Below are positions 14,704-54,401 of a DNA stretch of 64,000 nt, piece by piece; position 1 is the first letter of the stretch; each line of letters starts with the position of its first letter. The stretch is from a virus. Its lineage: Duplodnaviria > Caudoviricetes. The notes beneath the pieces were generated by a model. The model had not been told where the DNA came from. It made no database searches and worked only from the letters and a program-made list of their open reading frames with translations. The translations under genes were made by a program, and so were the position numbers. The stretch lies in the IMG/VR virus record IMGVR_UViG_3300050343_000159; one strand, written 5' to 3'.

Positions 14704-15805
14704 TGGATGGCGCAGTTCATGCATGGAATACCATGAGTTATGGAGAAGGATTTCTCTTCTCCGTTTGGTTACTGGGGATGTATTTTATTAAACTAAAAAT
14801 GGATCAGAGGTTTGGGCGATGAATCTTGAAATGAGTAGACGTGACGCAATTGTTCTACGTCATCATCTTTTCTTGTATACAAAAGATCACCCTGGTTTCT
14901 TCTCTGATGAAGGTATTCTAAAGATCAGAGAGATTTCACAACAACTAGATAAACAAATTGGTAAAGAGGAAAACCTATGATTAAAATTGAAATGGATGTT
15001 AGAGCTGCAGCCGCAGTGAGAGCATCACTCTTTCGTGATACAAAAGAGTATACATATGATCCAACCTGTTGTCCTCAACGAGTTGTTGATCTTCGTAACG
15101 TAATTTTAGATTTGGACACACAAATCGAAACAGAAATCCAAAAAGTAATTGAAGCACAAACTGAGGAGGAATCCAATGAAACTACTGACGCTTGAAGACT
15201 ATCAAAAAGCTGGAGAAGAGTTTTGGCCTAAGTATTGGTACGTCTCTAAAGAACTTGGAGAGGGAGCTAAGGTTGAGGACATTCTAAAAGTTATGGAATC
15301 TCTTGGTGCTGTTGCTTTAAAAATTAAAGTAGAAGACAAACTCTCTGGACCATTTGGATTTAACAAAAAGAAAGATGACGAATCAACGGAAGAATGAAAC
15401 CCTGGTTGATGAAGCATTCTATGTCTGGGAAACTAGATATGGACTGTGGTCAACAGAAACAAAAGAAGGTCGTGGTATGATGACTGGAGCTACTAGAGAT
15501 GCTGTTGTTGTAATGACACGGTGGCATCTCAAGTGTGAACAAGATGGAACTCTTGAACAATACACAAGAGTTGTAGGTAGTTCTGTGGTTGATGGGAAGT
15601 TGTAATGGACCAAATATTCAGACTGTTGTCTATGTTTGTTATGTTGTTCAATATCTGTAATCAGAGTGACTTCAATAGACAACAGTGTATGAAAGACTGG
15701 GATGTGTGGTTGTATCCTGAACTTATAAGTGGTTGGAATCTATACACAGAAAAAGAAAAACCCTATCAAAGAGAGAAGGAAATATTAGAAGACATAAATA
15801 ACTAA
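14703..15805 (+). CDS. Run of about six small overlapping hypothetical ORFs (14703, 14819, 14977, ~15176, 15354, 15605)
   Basis: Tightly packed start/stop overlaps in the same orientation. Confidence 0.55.
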
Positions 15806-15827: not shown

Positions 15828-17079
15828 ATGCAAGATATGAGAGATCTGTATAAGGCATATTCTGCCGTACATGATACTACTATTAAGGAAGAACTAGATA
15901 ACTCGAAAGATCAGATTTCTGCAATGAACTTGGGTCAGCTGACCGAAGATGATTTGCTTGAAGTTTGTGAGGAGATTGTAGAAGGTTTGTTCCAGTATGG
16001 TTGTGTTCTAAACACTGTACATGAAGTTGTTGGTTCTGTTATGGAATCGACTGTAGAAGGTGAACTTCCTGCACATAGACAAGAGAAGATTGTTCGTATC
16101 TCTGAAGCATTTGATAAGACATTTGAAAAGGTAGCTAGTAGAGCTGAGAGAAACTGTGAAGAAGAGTTCCTCAAGTATCGCACTAATAAGCCTCTGAATG
16201 AGAAGTGGCAAAATAAGTTGAATAATGAAGTTGGTAACGAGAAACTTCATGCAGCTTTGATTCACGAAGATAGAGAAACCATCAAGGGTGGTTTGATTGA
16301 GATGATCTCTAAGGTCATTGAAGAGAAGAAAGATTCTTCTTATCTTGAGACAGATATGAAGAAGAGAGAGAAGAATAACGAGAAGGCTCGTAAGGACATG
16401 GAGAAGATGGGTTCTATGAAGAATCCAGCCTTTGAAGAAGTATCAACTCTGAGAAAGGGTTGGGGTGATGCATATGCCGCCATCTACGAGAAGAAACTTG
16501 ATCCTGTAGGTCAGGAAGATGGTGATATCGATAATGACGGTGACAAGGATTCTTCTGATAAGTATCTTGCCAAGAGACGTAAGGCTATCGCTAAGTCCAT
16601 GAATGAAAGAAGGTAAGATGTCTGATGAAGACATCAAGAAGCGTGTTGGTTACACTTCTGATGAAACTCGCCAGAAGAGACTTGATAAAATCAAAGTCAA
16701 GTTTATGAAGAAAGAAGAGACTGAAGTACAAGAAGGTATCCGTGATCTTGATCAAGAAAAAGGAACCAAAGAAAGAAAAGCAAGTCTCGAAAAGAAGCGT
16801 GGTATGAAACTTGATGATCATCCCCAGTATAAGAAAGAAAAAGTCGAAGGTTACATGCCTATGACACCTGAGAGAACTGCTCGTGTTGACAAATCAAAAG
16901 CAAAGGCTTATGATAAGGACATGATGGCACAATCCAAGGGTGACACTGAAGGAGCAGATAAACAGTTCAAACGTCGTATGGCAATGGACTTCAAAACTAA
17001 GATGAAGAAAGAGGAAGTAACTTTCTCTGAAGCTGAACTGAAGAAGTTTGAAGAGATTGCAAAATCCTGGGAAGATTGA
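15828..17079 (+). CDS. Probable head-internal/virion protein (likely one ORF; 15828-16616 and 16603-17079 joined by a 1-nt indel)
   Basis: TAAATA 15795-15800; DLYKAYSAVH..IKEE and AYAAIYEKK repeats; LDPVGQEDGDIDNDGDKD motif; removing one A at ~16606 fuses the frames. Confidence 0.6.
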
Positions 17080-17082
17080 TCG

Positions 17083-19061
17083 ATGACGAGAGACGTATTT
17101 AAATATTTTAAACATGTAAGGTCTCTCCAAGAAGATAAAGGAGCTGAGAAAGCAGCAGAGCTTGGTTACCAACACCAGGCTCGTGGTGTGTATATTGATC
17201 CTAAAACTCAGAAGAGATACAAGAATGTTGGCGATAAGTTAGAACCTATCGTTGTTGAACCAACTGCCGAAAAGGGTGGTGGTCAACAGAAACCTGATAC
17301 CAAATCATTGGGTCAGTTTAAAAAAGATGCTACTAGCAACACAACCAGACACCAACAGCATTGCCACAAATTCCTGATGGAGTTAGTGACGATGAGTTTG
17401 CTGCTGCTAAGGCAAAAGAATTTACTGGTGGTAGAGATGTAACACCAGAAAGAAAGGAGTTCCTTGATAAAGTATCTAAGACACTGGTTGCATTAGGTAA
17501 TCGTCAGGCGGCAGCTGAGGTATCTGATGAAGAGGAACCTGAAACACCAGAAGAAACAGAAGCACCAGAAGAAAAGACAGCTGATGATTTCCCTACTATT
17601 GATCAGAAACTAGAACAGGAATCTGAAGAGGCTACTGAAGACAATGATTTAGATGAGGATGAAGCATTTGAAACTGAGTATGAAAGGTTCCAACAGGAAG
17701 CCGAAGAAACCATGAGAGGTTTGGCTGATAGGCAACGCAAGATGATGGAAAAGAAGTTCGGTAAATTTACTGAATCTCTGAAGAATATCCCTAGTGCTAC
17801 TGATAAGAAATCATTCTTGGCATCAATGGCACACGCCAAGACATTTGAAGGTCGTGTGAATGCAGGTGCTGGTAAGAACAATCTTGGATATGCTGATGTG
17901 CAGAACTTGATGGCCAATCGTGACAGATTGATTGAAGGATATGGTGATGGATCACCTGAACATATTAAAAAGTTTGTTGATTCTGTTCGTTCGATCGAAG
18001 TATCTGATGAATTTGTTGATGCATCTTATGATGTTCTTCCTGAAACTTTCAAGAAATCATTGAAAGGTAAAGGTCAAGTTACTGGTGATAAGTATGTGTC
18101 AGATGATAAGGCACATAAAGACATGCACTATCTGGGCAAAAACCCAGATGGTACAGCAAAGAGAGGTATGGCTAGTACTAATGATAGGGCTAAGTTGATG
18201 TGGAAGATCTACCTGGAACAGGGTGGTCGTGATGCCTATACAGGTCTCCCACTTGATATTCAGTCAATGGATTTGGAACATGTTCGTGGTTTCAACAATA
18301 AAGATGGTGGAAAACCAGGTAAAGAAGAGTGGGAACAGAGAGAAAATGATGATAATATGACCCTTATCAACTCTAATATCAACCAAACAAAGGTTGATTT
18401 GTCAATGAAAGACTTCTTTGAACAGAGAGTTGATCCAGATAAGGACAAATCAGAGGAAGACTTTGGTGGTATTGAGAAGTTATTTGACAAACAGAATGAA
18501 ATTATGAGTGTTGGTGAGGAACTTTCCAAAACACTTTTAGGTGAAGGTGGTAAGGGACTTGGTAACGAAGTAACTAGAGAAGTTCTTAGAGAACACTTTA
18601 GTGGTGATGATACCAGGTATAATGATCTTAGAGAAGAGTTCCGTAAGGTTGCCACTGATGAAAAAGATAAGAAAAAGGCCAATGGAATGAAGTCTAAGAT
18701 GGGTAAAACTCTTCTGAAAGCTACTGGTTTGGCTCGTGGTATTACTGACCCTTCAGGTAGAAGAACAGTAGCACTTCAAGAGAATGTGTATCGTGGTTTC
18801 TTGGAGTCGATGGCTGGAGCAAAATCATCAGATCGTCAAAAGTATATGGATGGTTGGGCAGAAGCAATTAAAGCAGGTAATGATGAGAGAACACCTAAAG
18901 CAGTCAATAGAAAACTGATTGAACTCGGATTGATCGATCAAGAGATCTTGGATGATAAGAAAGCTGGTCGAGTGTTCCGTGAAGAACTTGAATATCTTGA
19001 TAGGATGAATGGAAGAATGACTATTGATAAGTTAAAAAAATCATTAAGAAATCCCTTTTGA
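17083..19061 (+). CDS. Large protein with Cas9-like HNH nuclease domain, probable head-internal protein (frameshift ~17335)
   Basis: KIYLEQGGRDAYTGLPLDIQSMDLEHV...DNMTLINSNINQTK at ~18200-18400; acidic linker; N-terminal LQE site. Confidence 0.7.
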
Positions 19062-19115: not shown

Positions 19116-19796
19116 ATGTCCGTTAGTCTAAGACTCTCTCATATTGAGGAGATTGAGTTGTGTAAGTCAGCACAACAGGGTTGTGAGAAATCCATGGAGA
19201 AGATGGTAACTCATAATCTTGGTCTGGTAAGTAAACTTGCCAAGAAAATGTATTACAAGAATGAGCAGTTCTCCTATGAGGATATGTTCCAAGAAGGTGT
19301 CATCGGTTTGATGAAAGCCATTCGCAAGTTTGATCCAAAAGAAGGTTGTAGGTTTTCTACTTACTCTTACTATTGGATCTATTGTTTTGTAAGTAAGTTT
19401 CACACCAATCACTATGGTAGGGTTCGTGTTCCTTCACATGTAAAAGAGAAACTTCGTAAGTTGGAGAAGACTGATATTAAAGGTTTCACTACATTGAAGA
19501 ACTCACTTCCTTATGTTGTGTCAATGAACTCATCGATTGGTGATAGTTCAACACTTGAAGATCTTATCTCAGATGACTATTATCGAGAACTTGATTGTGA
19601 AGTAGAAGTTGTTATTGATCAGATGAGGAAGGTTCTGAACGAACGTGAATACAGTGTAATGTGTTATCGTTATGGTTTGGATGGTAAAGACCAAATGACA
19701 CAACGTGAGTGTGGTAAGGTATTTGGTGTAAGTTACGCTATGATCCACTTGATTGAGAAGAAATCACTAGATAAACTTAGAAGATATTTCAACTGA
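19116..19796 (+). CDS. sigma70-family RNA polymerase sigma factor (regions 2 and 4)
   Basis: NLGLVSKLAKK, EDMFQEGVIGLMKAIRKFDP..GCRFSTY..YWI; region 4 LNEREYSV..RYGL...TQRECGKVFGVS. Confidence 0.88.
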   Translation: MSVSLRLSHIEEIELCKSAQQGCEKSMEKMVTHNLGLVSKLAKKMYYKNEQFSYEDMFQEGVIGLMKAIRKFDPKEGCRFSTYSYYWIYCFVSKFHTNHYGRVRVPSHVKEKLRKLEKTDIKGFTTLKNSLPYVVSMNSSIGDSSTLEDLISDDYYRELDCEVEVVIDQMRKVLNEREYSVMCYRYGLDGKDQMTQRECGKVFGVSYAMIHLIEKKSLDKLRRYFN

Positions 19797-19824: not shown

Positions 19825-21093
19825 ATGAAAGATTTTTTCAACTTCCTTTCGGAGGCTAGAGTATCTAAAGCTGCTGAGAAGGCAAAGAAACTTGGCCTCA
19901 CTAGTGATGGATCAGGCGGATGGGTAGATAGACAAGGTAATGTTCAAGCAAGAACTGTAGGTGGGGAATTAGTATTCTCACAAAAGAAAGGACCAACTGC
20001 AGAGAGAGAAACGGCAGGAAGAGTTACCGCAACTAAGGAAGATCCTAAGGCACAATCTCAACAACAGGCAGAACCTGAGGTTGAGAAGAGTAAGGATGAT
20101 CAAACTGATGGTGATATGAAGAATGGGGAGACAATCACCCTAGTCTTCGGTAGGTTTAATCCACCAACAGTTGGTCATGAGAAGTTACTTAATGGCGCAA
20201 AGAGTATTGCAGGTGGTTCAGAACTGAGGATTTATCCATCAAGATCCACTGATCCTAAGAAAAACCCTTTGGAACCAGGTGAAAAAACTAATATGATGAA
20301 GCAAATGTTCCCTGATCATAAGGAGAGCATTATTAATGATGAAGGTATCAAGACTATCTTTGATGCTCTTAAGTTAGCAGATGATGAGGGATATTCTAAT
20401 GTCAAAATCGTAGTTGGATCTGATAGAGTATCTGAGTTTGATAGTCTGGCTCAGAAATACAATGGTAAGTTGTATAACTTTGATGAAATTGAGACTATTT
20501 CTGCTGGTGATAGAGATGCAGAGGGTGAAGGTGTAGAAGGAATGTCAGCCTCTAAGATGAGACAGGCTGCATCAGAGGATGATTTTGAGGCATTCAGACA
20601 GGGTATTCCATCATCGCTGGATGACAAAACTGCAAGACAGTTGATGAGTACTGTTCGTAAGAGAATGAAAGTTACTACAGAGTCTTGGAGTCTGTGGGAG
20701 ATTGCACCTAAGTTTGATTGGAGAAACCTCCGTGAGAACTATGTAACTGGTAAAATCTTTAACATTAGTTCTTTGGTTGAGAACCTAAACACTGGTTTGG
20801 TTGGTAAAGTTATCCGTAGAGGAACCAACTATCTAATCTGTGTGACAGAGGATAATATTATGTTCAAGTCTTGGGTAAGAGATCTCAAGGAATATACTGA
20901 AGTCAAGATGGATAGTGAGATGAGAGATAAGACTCATCCAAATACTTTGGTTGGAACTTCTGGTAACTTCAAGAGAGTTGCAAAACTTACACCTGGTTTT
21001 GAGAAGGGAGACCCCACTAATCTACAGGATGGTGGAAAACCATACAAGGGTTATGATATCAGAAACTTCATAAATAAGAATAAGAAAAAGTAG
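19825..21093 (+). CDS. Cytidylyltransferase/NMNAT-like HxGH nucleotidyltransferase, probable virion protein
   Basis: FGRFNPPTVGHEKL, VVGSDR, MSASKMR; N-terminus MKDFFNFLSEA; TAAATA 19797-19802. Confidence 0.85.
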   Translation: MKDFFNFLSEARVSKAAEKAKKLGLTSDGSGGWVDRQGNVQARTVGGELVFSQKKGPTAERETAGRVTATKEDPKAQSQQQAEPEVEKSKDDQTDGDMKNGETITLVFGRFNPPTVGHEKLLNGAKSIAGGSELRIYPSRSTDPKKNPLEPGEKTNMMKQMFPDHKESIINDEGIKTIFDALKLADDEGYSNVKIVVGSDRVSEFDSLAQKYNGKLYNFDEIETISAGDRDAEGEGVEGMSASKMRQAASEDDFEAFRQGIPSSLDDKTARQLMSTVRKRMKVTTESWSLWEIAPKFDWRNLRENYVTGKIFNISSLVENLNTGLVGKVIRRGTNYLICVTEDNIMFKSWVRDLKEYTEVKMDSEMRDKTHPNTLVGTSGNFKRVAKLTPGFEKGDPTNLQDGGKPYKGYDIRNFINKNKKK

Positions 21094-21101
21094 TCAAAGA
21101 A

Positions 21102-22235
21102 ATGATTAACCCTCTTAATGAATTGTCTTCTGTGTATATGCAGGACATTTCAGAAAAAAAGAAGTGTGATGAAAAACTCCCACAGGGTGATAGTGTAGAT
21201 GGTGGAGATGCTGCTAAGCCTGGTAAGGATAAGAACTATGTGAAGCCTATGGCTACAGAAGGTCATTGTGCTGTTGATGGTGTTGAGTGTTCTCCAACAG
21301 AGAAGAAGAAAGACTCTAAGAGAATGAAGAAAGAAAGTGCATATTCAAATTGGAGAAATGATTCACAAGATCTCCTAGAAGTCATTGGTGGCGCATATGG
21401 TGGAGTTGCCGGTGTTGATAATGAGAAAAATCTTGAGAACCCTAAGGCTAAGAAAGCTTCTAAGTCTAACGAAAGAATTACTGAGAAAAGTGTAAAGAAT
21501 AAGATTAGAATCAATCCTCCTCAGGGTGTAACTGAAGGGTTCGCAGAACTCGGTGGTGTTATTGCAGAAATGTATGAAATTACTGAGAAGATTGATATCG
21601 CTAAGGCTGATATGGGTGATGTTGTAAAGGACTTCCGTAAGTCTGATGCACCTCAGTTTAAAGGTAAGTCGGATAAAAAGAAGCAAGAGATGGCTGTTGC
21701 AGCCAAACTAGCTACTGAGGAGACAGAAGAAGAGAAGAAGAAGAGAGAGTTGTTGGCTAAGACCAAGGAACATGATGATAAACAGTCAGGTAAATTAGCT
21801 GAGGCTGATATGGCTGGAGCTCCTTCCATTAAGAATATCAAACCAGTAAAGAAAACTAATGTGAAGTATGATCCTGACATGAAAGTTATGGCTCCTACCA
21901 TCAAGGCAGAAGGTAGAGCATTGGCTGGTGTTCTTTCTACCATCAGAGCAAAGAATGGAATGGGAACTGTAACAGCCAAGGGAGCTGATAAACTACAGGC
22001 TAAGAAAGAGAAGACTATGGGTGAAGAGATGTCTGTGAAAGATCAGATGGCAGCTACTATTAAATACAACAAAATGAATCCTCGTAAACCATATAAGCCT
22101 GGTGATGGATACAAGAGGAACCAACGTGATGCAGCTGCTAATGCAGCAAGACAACCTAAGGATACTAGAACTGATGCACAGAAGATGACTGATGCTACTG
22201 GACCTAGACCCGGATCCAACTATAGAGGAGACTGA
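21102..22235 (+). CDS. Probable head-internal protein, K/E-rich
   Basis: TAAATA 21071-21076; many [ILV]xE sites (ISEKK, ITEK, VTEG, LAEA); EKIDIAKADMGDVVKDF. Confidence 0.6.
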   Translation: MINPLNELSSVYMQDISEKKKCDEKLPQGDSVDGGDAAKPGKDKNYVKPMATEGHCAVDGVECSPTEKKKDSKRMKKESAYSNWRNDSQDLLEVIGGAYGGVAGVDNEKNLENPKAKKASKSNERITEKSVKNKIRINPPQGVTEGFAELGGVIAEMYEITEKIDIAKADMGDVVKDFRKSDAPQFKGKSDKKKQEMAVAAKLATEETEEEKKKRELLAKTKEHDDKQSGKLAEADMAGAPSIKNIKPVKKTNVKYDPDMKVMAPTIKAEGRALAGVLSTIRAKNGMGTVTAKGADKLQAKKEKTMGEEMSVKDQMAATIKYNKMNPRKPYKPGDGYKRNQRDAAANAARQPKDTRTDAQKMTDATGPRPGSNYRGD

Positions 22236-22717
22236 TGCAAGTTGGAACTGGAGGATTTACTAATAGTTCTCCTGCACAAGGACCAGTTGCTGGTATAGAC
22301 ACAAAGTTGTTCAAGGGCGAAGATGATCTTCTGGATCAAGATTATCAAACCCCTGGACAATCAGGTCAAGCCAAGTGGAGATTTTCTAATGTCTATCCTG
22401 TTCAGAGAGTAGGGTTACAAGATGTTGATGCAATGGTTGATGCATCTAAAGAGTATGTTAAGATGGTGGATGAATCAGCCTATCAACGTATCCGTCAGGT
22501 CTTCAATCAAGTGAGGTTAGAACAAAAGATGAGAGAGAACTATGATCTTAAACGTGAAAAAAGACTTGATGATCAAGAGAGGAAACATAAAGAGCAAGAT
22601 GAAAGAATGAAGTATGGTAAGAAAGGTTTTAATCAATATCAAAAAGATTCACTGAGACCTGGCGAAGTCAAAAGGTATGATAAAATGAAGAAGAAGTGGG
22701 TATCAAATAAAGATTGA
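22235..22717 (+). CDS. Hypothetical late protein
   Basis: 160-aa ORF overlapping the previous stop. Confidence 0.6.
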   Translation: MQVGTGGFTNSSPAQGPVAGIDTKLFKGEDDLLDQDYQTPGQSGQAKWRFSNVYPVQRVGLQDVDAMVDASKEYVKMVDESAYQRIRQVFNQVRLEQKMRENYDLKREKRLDDQERKHKEQDERMKYGKKGFNQYQKDSLRPGEVKRYDKMKKKWVSNKD

Positions 22718-30515: not shown

Positions 30516-30588
30516 GGGTCAGTAGCTCAGTGGATAGAGCATCGCACTTCTAATGCGTTGGTCGGGGGTTCGAGTCCCTCCTGACCCG
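30516..30588 (+). tRNA. tRNA-Arg(TCT)
   Basis: Cloverleaf, AGCTCAG D-arm, TTCGAGTCC T-loop, CT-TCT-AA anticodon loop. Confidence 0.9.
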
Positions 30589-30592
30589 CCTC

Positions 30593-30666
30593 GCGGAATT
30601 AGTTTAGAGGCAAAACTAAAGGTTTCCAACCTTTCGTCACCGGTTCGATTCCGGTATTCCGCTCCA
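30593..30666 (+). tRNA. tRNA-Gly(TCC) with encoded CCA
   Basis: GCGGAAT/ATTCCGC acceptor stem, TT-TCC-AA loop, TTCGATTCC. Confidence 0.9.
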
Positions 30667-30667
30667 A

Positions 30668-30739
30668 TCCTCTATAGCTCAGTTGGTAGAGCTCGTGACT
30701 GTTAATTTCGCTGTCCTAGGTTCGAGTCCTAGTGGGGAG
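30668..30739 (+). tRNA. tRNA-Asn(GTT)
   Basis: TCCTCTA acceptor, CT-GTT-AA loop, GGTTCGAGTCC; weak anticodon stem may reflect sequence error. Confidence 0.85.
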
Positions 30740-30742
30740 TTA

Positions 30743-30814
30743 GCTCGAATAGCTCAGCGGTAGAGCACCTCCTTTACACGGAGATTGTCGGGGGTTCGAT
30801 CCCCTCTTCGAGCA
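30743..30814 (+). tRNA. tRNA-Val(TAC)
   Basis: GCTCGAA/TTCGAGC acceptor, TT-TAC-AC loop, GTTCGATCCC. Confidence 0.9.
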
Positions 30815-52860: not shown

Positions 52861-53197
52861 AGGTAAAATGTTGAAGTATGAAATGGAATCTCATCTTTAT
52901 AGGTTAAAGAATGAACTACACAGTAGGTCAGGAGTTGTGTGAATCTAAAGGTCTAGCTGATGAGTATCTCAATAGGGTCTTAGATAAACTTCAAGAGTTT
53001 AGATACTAAGCTAAGCCCAACCTTTATCGGTAACAAACCTATTGTAGTCAAAACCAATACCCTTGTTAAGTACCAGTTCTCTAAGTGGAACACCAACTTA
53101 ACAGGGGTATTTCTTTGTGGTATGATAACAGGGTAAACAAAACTTTACATAAATAAACCAGTTACTTGTGTTGGTTTCAACATAAGTGTTTATACTT

Positions 53198-53308
53198 ACT
53201 CCCCTTAAACCAAGACCTATAGGGAGTCTAAAAACGTCTTTAATACCTGTATCTAAGGGTGATACAGGAATAGTAAAACCATCATTTCCCTGATGATCTT
53301 ACTTTTAA
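53198..53308 (+). ncRNA. PhotoRC-II-like cis-regulatory RNA in the psbA 5' UTR
   Basis: Hairpins CCTGTATC/GATACAGG and CATCA/TGATG directly before psbA; matches my recollection of the cyanophage psbA leader motif. Confidence 0.65.
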
Positions 53309-53318
53309 GTACATTACA

Positions 53319-54401
53319 ATGGCTTCAACACTTTCAAGACAACAACAATCACAATCCACATGGAATGACTTCTGTGACTGGGTGACCTCCACCAACAATC
53401 GTCTGTATGTCGGTTGGTTCGGTGTACTGATGATCCCAACTCTGTTGGCGGCTACCATCTGTTTCATTATTGCATTCGTAGGTGCTCCTCCTGTGGACAT
53501 CGACGGTATCCGTGAACCCGTTGCTGGTTCACTCATGTATGGCAACAACATCATCTCTGGTGCTGTCGTTCCTTCCTCCAATGCAATCGGTCTACATTTC
53601 TACCCCATCTGGGAAGCAGCCTCACTCGATGAGTGGCTTTACAATGGCGGTCCTTTCCAACTGGTAGTCTTCCACTTCCTTATCGGCATCTACGCTTATA
53701 TGGGACGTGAGTGGGAACTTTCTTATCGTTTGGGTATGAGACCCTGGATCTGTGTGGCATATTCCGCACCTGTAGCTGCAGCGAGTGCAGTATTCCTGGT
53801 CTATCCTTTCGGTCAAGGTTCTTTCTCCGACGCGATGCCCCTGGGTATCTCTGGTACATTCAACTACATGTTGGTCTTCCAAGCAGAACATAACATCCTG
53901 ATGCACCCCTTCCACATGTTGGGAGTTGCTGGTGTCTTCGGTGGTTCACTCTTCTCGGCAATGCATGGTTCACTGGTTACTTCTTCTTTGGTTCGTGAAA
54001 CGACCGAGCAAGAGTCACAGAACTATGGTTATAAGTTCGGACAAGAGGAAGAGACCTATAACATCGTCGCAGCTCATGGCTACTTCGGTCGTCTCATCTT
54101 CCAATACGCTTCTTTCAACAACTCTAGAAGTCTTCACTTCTTCTTGGCAGCCTGGCCTGTTGTAGGTATCTGGTTCACCGCACTTGGTGTTTCCACGATG
54201 GCCTTCAACCTGAACGGTTTCAACTTCAACCAGTCCATCGTTGATGGTCAGTCCCGTGTTATCAACACCTGGGCCGACGTTCTCAACAGAGCTGGACTTG
54301 GTATGGAAGTTATGCATGAGAGAAACGCTCACAACTTCCCACTCGACCTGGCAGCAGCTGAGTCTACTCCTGTAGCACTCACCGCTCCTTCTATCGGTTG
54401 A
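53319..54401 (+). CDS. psbA: Photosystem II D1 protein
   Basis: Complete 360-aa D1 ([31 protein letters not shown]); no intron. Confidence 0.99.

Follow-up and report, generated by a model that had tools for sequence, protein, structure and literature searches.

In a 64,000-nucleotide stretch of viral DNA (the window; IMG/VR record IMGVR_UViG_3300050343_000159), which is part of a T4-like cyanomyovirus (Kyanoviridae), we find a gene whose product almost certainly carries a genuine HNH nuclease domain of the Cas9/HNH_4 type, as judged from sequence comparison and structure models. We propose that this protein is targeted to the capsid, processed by the prohead protease, ejected into the host and active as a nuclease without a guide; for this chain as a whole, we consider the chances to be about even. 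The proposal draws on the HNH fold, the conserved catalytic residues, an N-terminal module shared with other phage proteins, kinship to proteins detected in virions and a late-promoter-like motif, all of which were computed or compared here. The gene is made up of the following parts, with residues numbered along its longer open reading frame (ORF; 566 amino acids (aa), P0003):

17083..19061, + strand: the whole HNH-protein gene (1979 nt), frameshifted here; a single ORF of 656-692 aa in relatives
17083..17133, + strand: N-terminal peptide MTRDVFKYFKHVRSLQE, an amphipathic tag ending L-x-E that is like the T4 capsid-targeting sequence (CTS), with a putative prohead-protease site
17134..17256, + strand: 'LGL...G.W.D...G...GELV' mini-domain, which completes the shared N-terminal module
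17336..17350, + strand: frameshift site, with a gain of 1 nt (about 17336) and a loss of 5 nt (about 17350), net -4 nt, from alignment to a 99%-identical metagenome contig (L004)
17646..18065, + strand: helical lobe before the HNH domain (residues 96-235), with a predicted local distance difference test score (pLDDT) above 90 over most of its length in AlphaFold2 (AF2) models
18108..18446, + strand: HNH (beta-beta-alpha-metal) nuclease domain (residues 250-362), from profile, Pfam and fold searches
18276-18278 (E306), 18279-18281 (H307), 18354-18356 (N332), 18381-18383 (N341) and 18390-18392 (K344), + strand: key codons of the HNH domain
18447..19016, + strand: C-terminal helical lobe (residues 363-552), AF2 pLDDT about 95

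The window holds the gene as two overlapping ORFs, ORF1 (17083-17442, 119 aa) and ORF2 (17361-19061, 566 aa, TTG start). In relatives a single gene spans both ORFs, and its N-terminus corresponds to ORF1. Read through in this way, the protein starts with a CTS-like peptide ending L-x-E, followed by a mini-domain of about 40 aa (LGL...GELV), an acidic linker, a helical lobe, the HNH domain and a second helical lobe. The closest relatives in GenBank are found in Synechococcus phages S-B05, RB11-B and S-H68 (76% aa identity), followed by S-CRM01 g51 (49%).

ORF2 contains the stretch ...KIYLEQGGRDAYTGLPLDIQSMDLEHVRGF...RENDDNMTLINSNINQTK. A total of 146 cluster representatives at 50% identity were collected, and 54 full-length ones, most of them 20-45% identical, were aligned. 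H307, N332, N341 and K344 form the sole invariant columns of this alignment, residue 306 is Asp or Glu in 54 of 54 relatives, and an upstream L-E-Q-G-G-x-D-x-Y-T-G-L-P-L stretch is near-invariant. By residue conservation, the domain appears to be catalytically intact and is predicted to be active. When a profile of the HNH region was searched against the PDB, 49 sequences were returned at E <= 10, and 46 of these were Cas9 HNH domains (best E 4e-4). The Pfam family HNH_4 (PF13395) was found in 24 of the 54 relatives at E values up to 0.1 (best 5.6e-7), and one relative (P0143) bears a precomputed PF13395 match. The NCBIfam Cas9 model TIGR01865 matches the HNH sub-region weakly (E 2e-4) at model positions 557-588, where the HNH domain starts. 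Apart from this match, single-sequence searches with the 566-aa ORF (Pfam, NCBIfam and phmmer against the PDB) gave nothing useful. A search of prokaryote genome contigs with the single domain found no close relative, which is weak evidence. The family profile also matched PsaA, a manganese ABC transporter protein, over 33 residues (E 1e-3), which we judged to be a short motif coincidence.

An AF2 model of the whole protein, computed with the family alignment, reached a pLDDT of 85.6 and a predicted template modelling score (pTM) of 0.74. The model of the HNH domain (pLDDT 88.6) contains the expected strand-strand-helix core, formed by beta56-60, beta86-90 and alpha91-97. In a Foldseek search with the domain model, ranks 1-14 were all Cas9 HNH domains (probability 0.97-1.0, best E 1.1e-3). 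VIA-align, run against 48,161 chains, gave a Z of 6.3 to SaCas9, GVE2 HNH and GeoCas9 HNH, with retron and Septu HNH proteins, T4 endonuclease VII, IscB, McrA and Cap5 at the next ranks; HNH nucleases make up almost all of the 30 best matches. The fold scores are modest in absolute terms, but the match lists are nearly pure HNH and agree with the sequence evidence.

The best profile and structure matches are to the HNH domains of Cas9 proteins (HNH_4, PF13395; GeoCas9 7mpz/8f43, NmeCas9 5vgb, SaCas9 9mb6), which share with the phage domain the beta-beta-alpha-metal fold, a preceding helix with the pattern [LY]xxQxG[RG]xxY, and equivalent catalytic residues (Asp/Glu-His, Asn and Asn-x-x-Lys). 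Unlike Cas9, the phage protein has no RuvC, REC or PI domain, no guide RNA and no CRISPR context, and its HNH domain carries an insertion of about 25 residues between the two strands. The likeness of the single sequence to Cas9 HNH is marginal, with no Pfam match of its own, a Foldseek E of about 1e-3 and a Z of about 6.

Both flanks of the HNH domain are all-helical in the AF2 model. The lobe before the HNH domain contains a strongly conserved GR.N.G.GKN.LG...GYGDG.PE...VSD (family consensus), and the C-terminal lobe has structure matches to phage relatives only (BFVD). For the lobe before the HNH domain, no PDB counterpart was found, and the C-terminal lobe has no notable match in the PDB or the Atlas. 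Foldseek with the whole model found no PDB match at E <= 1e-3, and a wide VIA-align search with the whole model returned mainly single long helices and told us nothing about the lobes. Searching the Atlas by shape gave weak rows only, apart from viral hypothetical clusters, and an ESM Atlas feature search with residues 125-250 gave no usable match. A weak match resembling a plakin repeat (desmoplakin 1lm5, E 0.05) covers residues 442-496 (about 18684-18848), including GKTLLKATGLARGITDPSGRRTVALQENVYRGF, and may be due to chance.

A preliminary description, made from the letters of the window, had quoted an HNH peptide of the Cas9-type pattern within a probable virion-internal protein of about 660 aa. 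The peptide is present as written, its His and both Asn are intact at the level of the codons, and the invariant residues in 54 relatives, together with profile, Pfam and fold searches that return HNH nucleases, place the pattern beyond chance. The proposed length holds for relatives with 99% identity, which are uninterrupted at 656-660 aa, and the window copy is frameshifted. The large helical regions that were said to embed the HNH domain are borne out by the model, and the suggested AlphaFold and Foldseek check returned a predicted beta-beta-alpha-metal fold with Cas9 HNH in first place.

We consider the N-terminus of the protein next, which looks like the T4 capsid-targeting tag in sequence. 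In T4, the CTS is MKTYQEFIAE, and it is removed inside the prohead (PMC8442874). After MTRDVFKYFKHVRSLQE, the phage protein continues with AAELGY...G.Y.DP.T....G.KLEP. The cytidyltransferase encoded two genes downstream in the window (start 19825) begins with MKDFFNFLSE and continues with the same mini-domain. Similar starts occur in non-structural proteins of the cyanomyovirus S-CREM2 that were detected in virions by mass spectrometry (MS): gp6 (MKDFDSFLEE), gp13 (MKDLHSFLTE), the gp14 kinase ((V)KRFDAFLTE) and gp154 (MKNFSSFLTE). S-CREM2 gp12 contains LRFASFMAE. When the whole window was searched with a hidden Markov model (HMM) of the module, exactly the HNH protein and the cytidyltransferase were found, both of which are among the seeds of the HMM, and there was no third copy. 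A large protein collection contains the module in at least 395 entries, 133-1221 aa in length. The cargos that could be recognised are protein (Ser/Thr) kinases, a Zeta-toxin-like kinase and HNH_4; most belong to no recognised family. The mini-domain 'LGL..G.G.Y.DP.TG.VVARTVNGELVF' (hits P0271-P0383) has no Pfam model; it is sometimes tandem and is duplicated in some relatives. Other members of the HNH family have different N-termini (MDxLxELWxLYE, or ...LVREWAWR..G.PD), so that one nuclease body goes with exchangeable heads. In the library searched, we found no literature linking cyanophages to a capsid-targeting sequence, apart from one T4 review.

The NMNAT-like cytidyltransferase itself (19825-21093, + strand) has an N-terminus close to the T4 CTS and is homologous to the virion-detected S-CREM2 gp154 (E 4e-57). 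ACG-2014f records give homologues of the HNH protein the wrong name 'cytitidyltransferase', and the N-terminal module that the two proteins share is the apparent cause.

The tag-like peptide invites comparison with the internal proteins (IPI-III) and with Alt of T4, which are targeted by a CTS, processed by gp21 and ejected. Like the phage protein described here, they have a short N-terminal amphipathic peptide ending x-E, and they too are diverse, dispensable cargos that share the tag only and are encoded outside the head cluster by apparently late genes. The HNH protein differs from them in that it has no homology beyond the tag-like peptide, is a large enzyme (about 70 kDa) that carries a mini-domain in addition, and its cleavage and ejection are putative. 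An engineered fusion of the CTS with staphylococcal nuclease provides a precedent for a nuclease inside the T4 head (PMC3012670).

The family is likely to be virion-associated. MS of CsCl-purified S-CREM2 virions identified ORF12, a 'CRISPR-Cas9 nuclease', with 28 peptides and 27.4% coverage, and the other non-structural virion proteins include a cytidylyltransferase, an APH-like kinase and a SAM hydrolase (PMC10665884). The gp12 record (WNL50931.1) is annotated 'Cas9/Csn1 (virion protein)'. An hhalign comparison of gp12 with our family profile gave a probability of 97.7% (E 1.6e-12), the aligned part covering pre-HNH lobe and HNH domain. Like the window protein, gp12 comes from a T4-like cyanomyovirus and combines the same N-terminal module, an FxxF[LM]xE peptide plus the LGL...GELV mini-domain, with a homologous pre-HNH lobe and a Cas9-type HNH (D-H...N...N-x-x-K). 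It differs in its length of 869 aa, in its flanks and in the position of its gene, which has a virion kinase gene and an EcoRI-like gene as neighbours. The S-CREM2 paper treats gp12 as a host-acquired Cas9 (PMC10665884), a view that is not supported by its domain content; the label 'Cas9/Csn1' overstates the similarity at the level of domains.

Two further relatives match the model over the whole protein (BFVD) and are virion proteins by record annotation only: S-CBWM1 gp174, a 'virion structural protein' (E 5.5e-11, 464 columns), and S-TIM5 AEZ65730, a 'virion structural protein and packaging' (E 1.6e-8). The gp174 gene has the portal/protease genes on one side and the major capsid gene on the other, and the protein keeps the HNH motif (EPEH...ENLLW...NNLKK). 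In contrast to the window protein, both come from non-T4 cyanomyoviruses and have other N-termini, and they are only 17-18% identical to it. Kinases have been reported in virions of S-CRM01, S-TIM5 and S-CBWM1. The virion-internal location proposed in the preliminary description gains indirect backing from a distant MS-detected relative, from the S-CBWM1 and S-TIM5 annotations and from the CTS-like N-terminus, and for the window protein itself packaging is probable.

The gene lies third in a compact operon whose genes start at 15828, 16603 and 17083, and a gap of 3 nt precedes it. The operon is preceded by the following element:

15793..15800, + strand: CATAAATA, a motif like T4-type late promoters, 28 nt upstream of the first ATG of the operon (15828)

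The late-promoter-like motif recurs 23 nt before the cytidyltransferase gene, as GATAAATA, and 26 nt before the next Lys/Glu-rich gene. All 18 ATAAATA sites of the window are on the + (coding) strand, and 8 of them lie 19-36 nt before an ORF start. This arrangement is no more than suggestive of late expression of the operon.

From these observations, we infer a pathway in which the HNH protein would serve T4-like cyanomyoviruses as an accessory protein made late in infection. Its N-terminal tag would bring it into the scaffolding core of the prohead, as the T4 CTS does for IPI-III, and the prohead protease would remove the tag after the Glu of LQE. The nuclease would then stay in the filled head, inactive on the packaged genome, and would be ejected together with the DNA. 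In the host, it may act at time zero as a protein-only, unguided one-metal-ion DNA nuclease or nickase. The probable target would be the host's DNA or one of its defence elements, attacked ahead of all phage gene expression.

A more general version of this pathway is rather more tentative. Here, cyanomyoviruses may load enzymes into the head by means of an FxxF[LI]xE peptide, often accompanied by one or two LGL...GELV copies, and eject them with the genome, the HNH protein being an injected unguided nuclease directed against host DNA or host defences. The cargo set, which would be polymorphic, would possibly comprise, besides the HNH nuclease, the NMNAT-like cytidyltransferase, Ser/Thr and Zeta-like kinases and the SAM hydrolase. 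With the same reserve, we suggest that the helical lobes or the ionic conditions might hold the nuclease in check inside the head.

Several points weigh against the proposal that the protein is a packaged and ejected nuclease. Pfam HNH models did not match the window protein on its own at E up to 10, because it is too diverged. Its N-terminus has the L-x-E ending but is longer than the N-terminus of the cytidyltransferase and a looser match to the T4 CTS; a strict CTS pattern finds only the cytidyltransferase (MKDFFNFLSE) in the window. The S-CREM2 relative is distant and can be aligned over only about 160 residues, at 22% identity, and the S-CRM01 g51 record carries no virion note. The total of ATAAATA sites is not above chance (18 observed, 13.7 expected), and we therefore call the motif no more than promoter-like. 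In several lineages (the window, S-CRM01, S-TIM5 and a distant 147-kb viral contig, L083), the gene lies among replication and recombination genes rather than head genes. The frameshift in the window separates the tag (ORF1) from the nuclease (ORF2). Finally, a packaged nuclease would need some way to spare the phage genome.

The gene neighbourhood is also what speaks for the main rival explanation, in which the protein is an intracellular nuclease made during infection, for replication, recombination, repair or degradation of host DNA, and its presence in virions is incidental. DNA polymerase, UvsX-like, helicase and MazG genes are among the neighbours in the window. The homologue of S-CRM01 lies between gp55 and gp47/gp46, that of S-TIM5 has ThyA, flap endonuclease and primase as neighbours, and that of the 147-kb contig has polymerase, SSB, UvsX, exonuclease and DnaB. 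For three other distant members, the contigs were of insufficient length to show a neighbourhood. However, T4 ip and alt genes are likewise scattered outside the head cluster, and the S-CBWM1 homologue does lie among head genes. In addition, the peptide count and coverage of gp12 in the purified S-CREM2 virions are above what trace carry-over would be expected to give, the N-terminal tag is common to other virion-detected enzymes, and the operon has a late-type promoter motif. We regard this explanation as unlikely. A second possibility, which is independent of function, is that the window copy is a pseudogene, in which the 4-nt deletion is real, tag and nuclease are uncoupled and the locus is decaying or non-functional. 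The window sequence is indeed out of frame, and the +1/-5 change falls within a CA-rich linker and is not a homopolymer slip. No public run matched the frameshifted version (best share of words 0.90), and internal and accessory proteins such as the T4 IPs are dispensable in the laboratory (PMC8442874). Against this, the in-frame form was present in contigs of 4 of 4 public runs from 4 different studies, and, outside the frameshift site, ORF2 carries no other lesion and shares 99% identity with intact copies from the environment, so that any inactivation would be very recent or an assembly error. Dozens of intact copies of 656-660 aa at 93-99% identity occur in metagenomes, which we read as a sign of selection on the gene. 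Since relatives and all four runs carry the in-frame form, the gene is intact and conserved in nature, and the frameshift of the window reflects either a mutation that has recently inactivated this copy or a fault of the assembly. A pseudogene in this genome is the less probable outcome, but one to be taken seriously. Programmed frameshifting was rejected as unlikely, as near-identical relatives are plainly in frame at that spot.

The similarity to Cas9 raises the question whether the protein might be a nuclease akin to Cas9 or IscB that cuts under the guidance of an RNA or a protein encoded elsewhere. The nearest solved relatives of its HNH domain are Cas9 HNH domains, large helical lobes flank the domain, and the S-CREM2 homologue is annotated Cas9/Csn1. 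However, outside the HNH domain, no RuvC, bridge helix, REC or PI domain was matched by Pfam or NCBIfam, and the AF2 model contains no RNase-H-like alpha/beta sheet. There are no tandem repeats at 12-26 kb of the window, and an Rfam search of the window found no family near the gene, only four tRNAs and PhotoRC-II, all of them distant. No CRISPR array, tracrRNA or omegaRNA and no cas1/cas2 lies beside the gene, whose neighbours are Lys/Glu-rich hypotheticals, a sigma factor and the cytidyltransferase. Many proteins outside CRISPR systems, moreover, contain HNH_4 (Atlas row 7, mostly viral). A Cas9 or IscB identity was thus rejected for want of RuvC, a CRISPR array and a non-coding RNA, and guidance of any kind is very improbable. 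The preliminary description had reported the lack of RuvC motifs, repeats and adjacent non-coding RNA correctly, and its alternative of an RNA-guided nuclease finds no support. It is equally improbable that the protein belongs to the mobile HNH homing endonucleases or to the HNH packaging factors associated with terminase, the two kinds to which most phage HNH genes belong; small free-standing HNH genes do occur nearby in S-TIM5. The protein is 660 aa long, and its multi-domain architecture is conserved across lineages (146 clusters at 50% identity). Its synteny with the sigma factor and cytidyltransferase genes is kept in close relatives, the gene neither interrupts nor adjoins a target gene, no terminase gene lies next to it, and in T4-like phages DNA cutting is done by gp17 (PMC3012670).

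What was known already is the kind of HNH domain and a homologue published as a virion-associated 'Cas9 nuclease'; the group is otherwise essentially uncharacterised. What appears to be new is the definition of the family, its demonstrated distinctness from Cas9, a tag resembling the T4 CTS that virion enzymes also bear, and the frameshift of this genome's copy. Marine T4-like cyanophages are responsible for killing much of the Synechococcus and Prochlorococcus in the ocean. To our knowledge, the non-DNA cargo that they inject is almost unstudied. If the proposed pathway is true, the tagged HNH nuclease would be a natural counterpart of the engineered T4 phages that carry a CTS-nuclease, and a candidate for an attack at time zero on the DNA or the defences of the host. 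If the frameshift is real, this isolate would not package the nuclease. The shared tag also provides a rule, based on sequence, by which further ejected proteins can be predicted from cyanophage genomes and from metagenomes; 395 or more proteins carry the module. The comparison corrects misleading labels, namely 'CRISPR-Cas9 nuclease' and 'Cas9/Csn1' in S-CREM2 and 'cytitidyltransferase' in ACG-2014f.

Some further features of the surroundings were noted. Four Lys/Glu-rich ORFs without known family flank the HNH gene (15828-17079 and 21102-22717, + strand) and may encode internal head proteins. The N-termini of ORFs 15828 (MQDMRDLYKAY...) and 21102 (MINPLNELSSVY...) are like the 'type B' heads (MDxLxELWxLYE) of some HNH-family members, and ORF 22235 is homologous to two virion-detected S-CREM2 proteins, gp15 (E 1.5e-11) and gp160 (E 2e-4). 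A TTGACA-like sequence directly follows the stop codon of the HNH gene. A sigma-70-family factor (19116-19796, + strand; Sigma70_r2 and r4 by Pfam) is inserted between the HNH gene and the cytidyltransferase gene. Farther away, a cluster of four tRNA genes lies at 30516-30814 (+ strand), and a PhotoRC-II RNA at 53187-53281 (+ strand) lies upstream of an ORF that starts at 53319.

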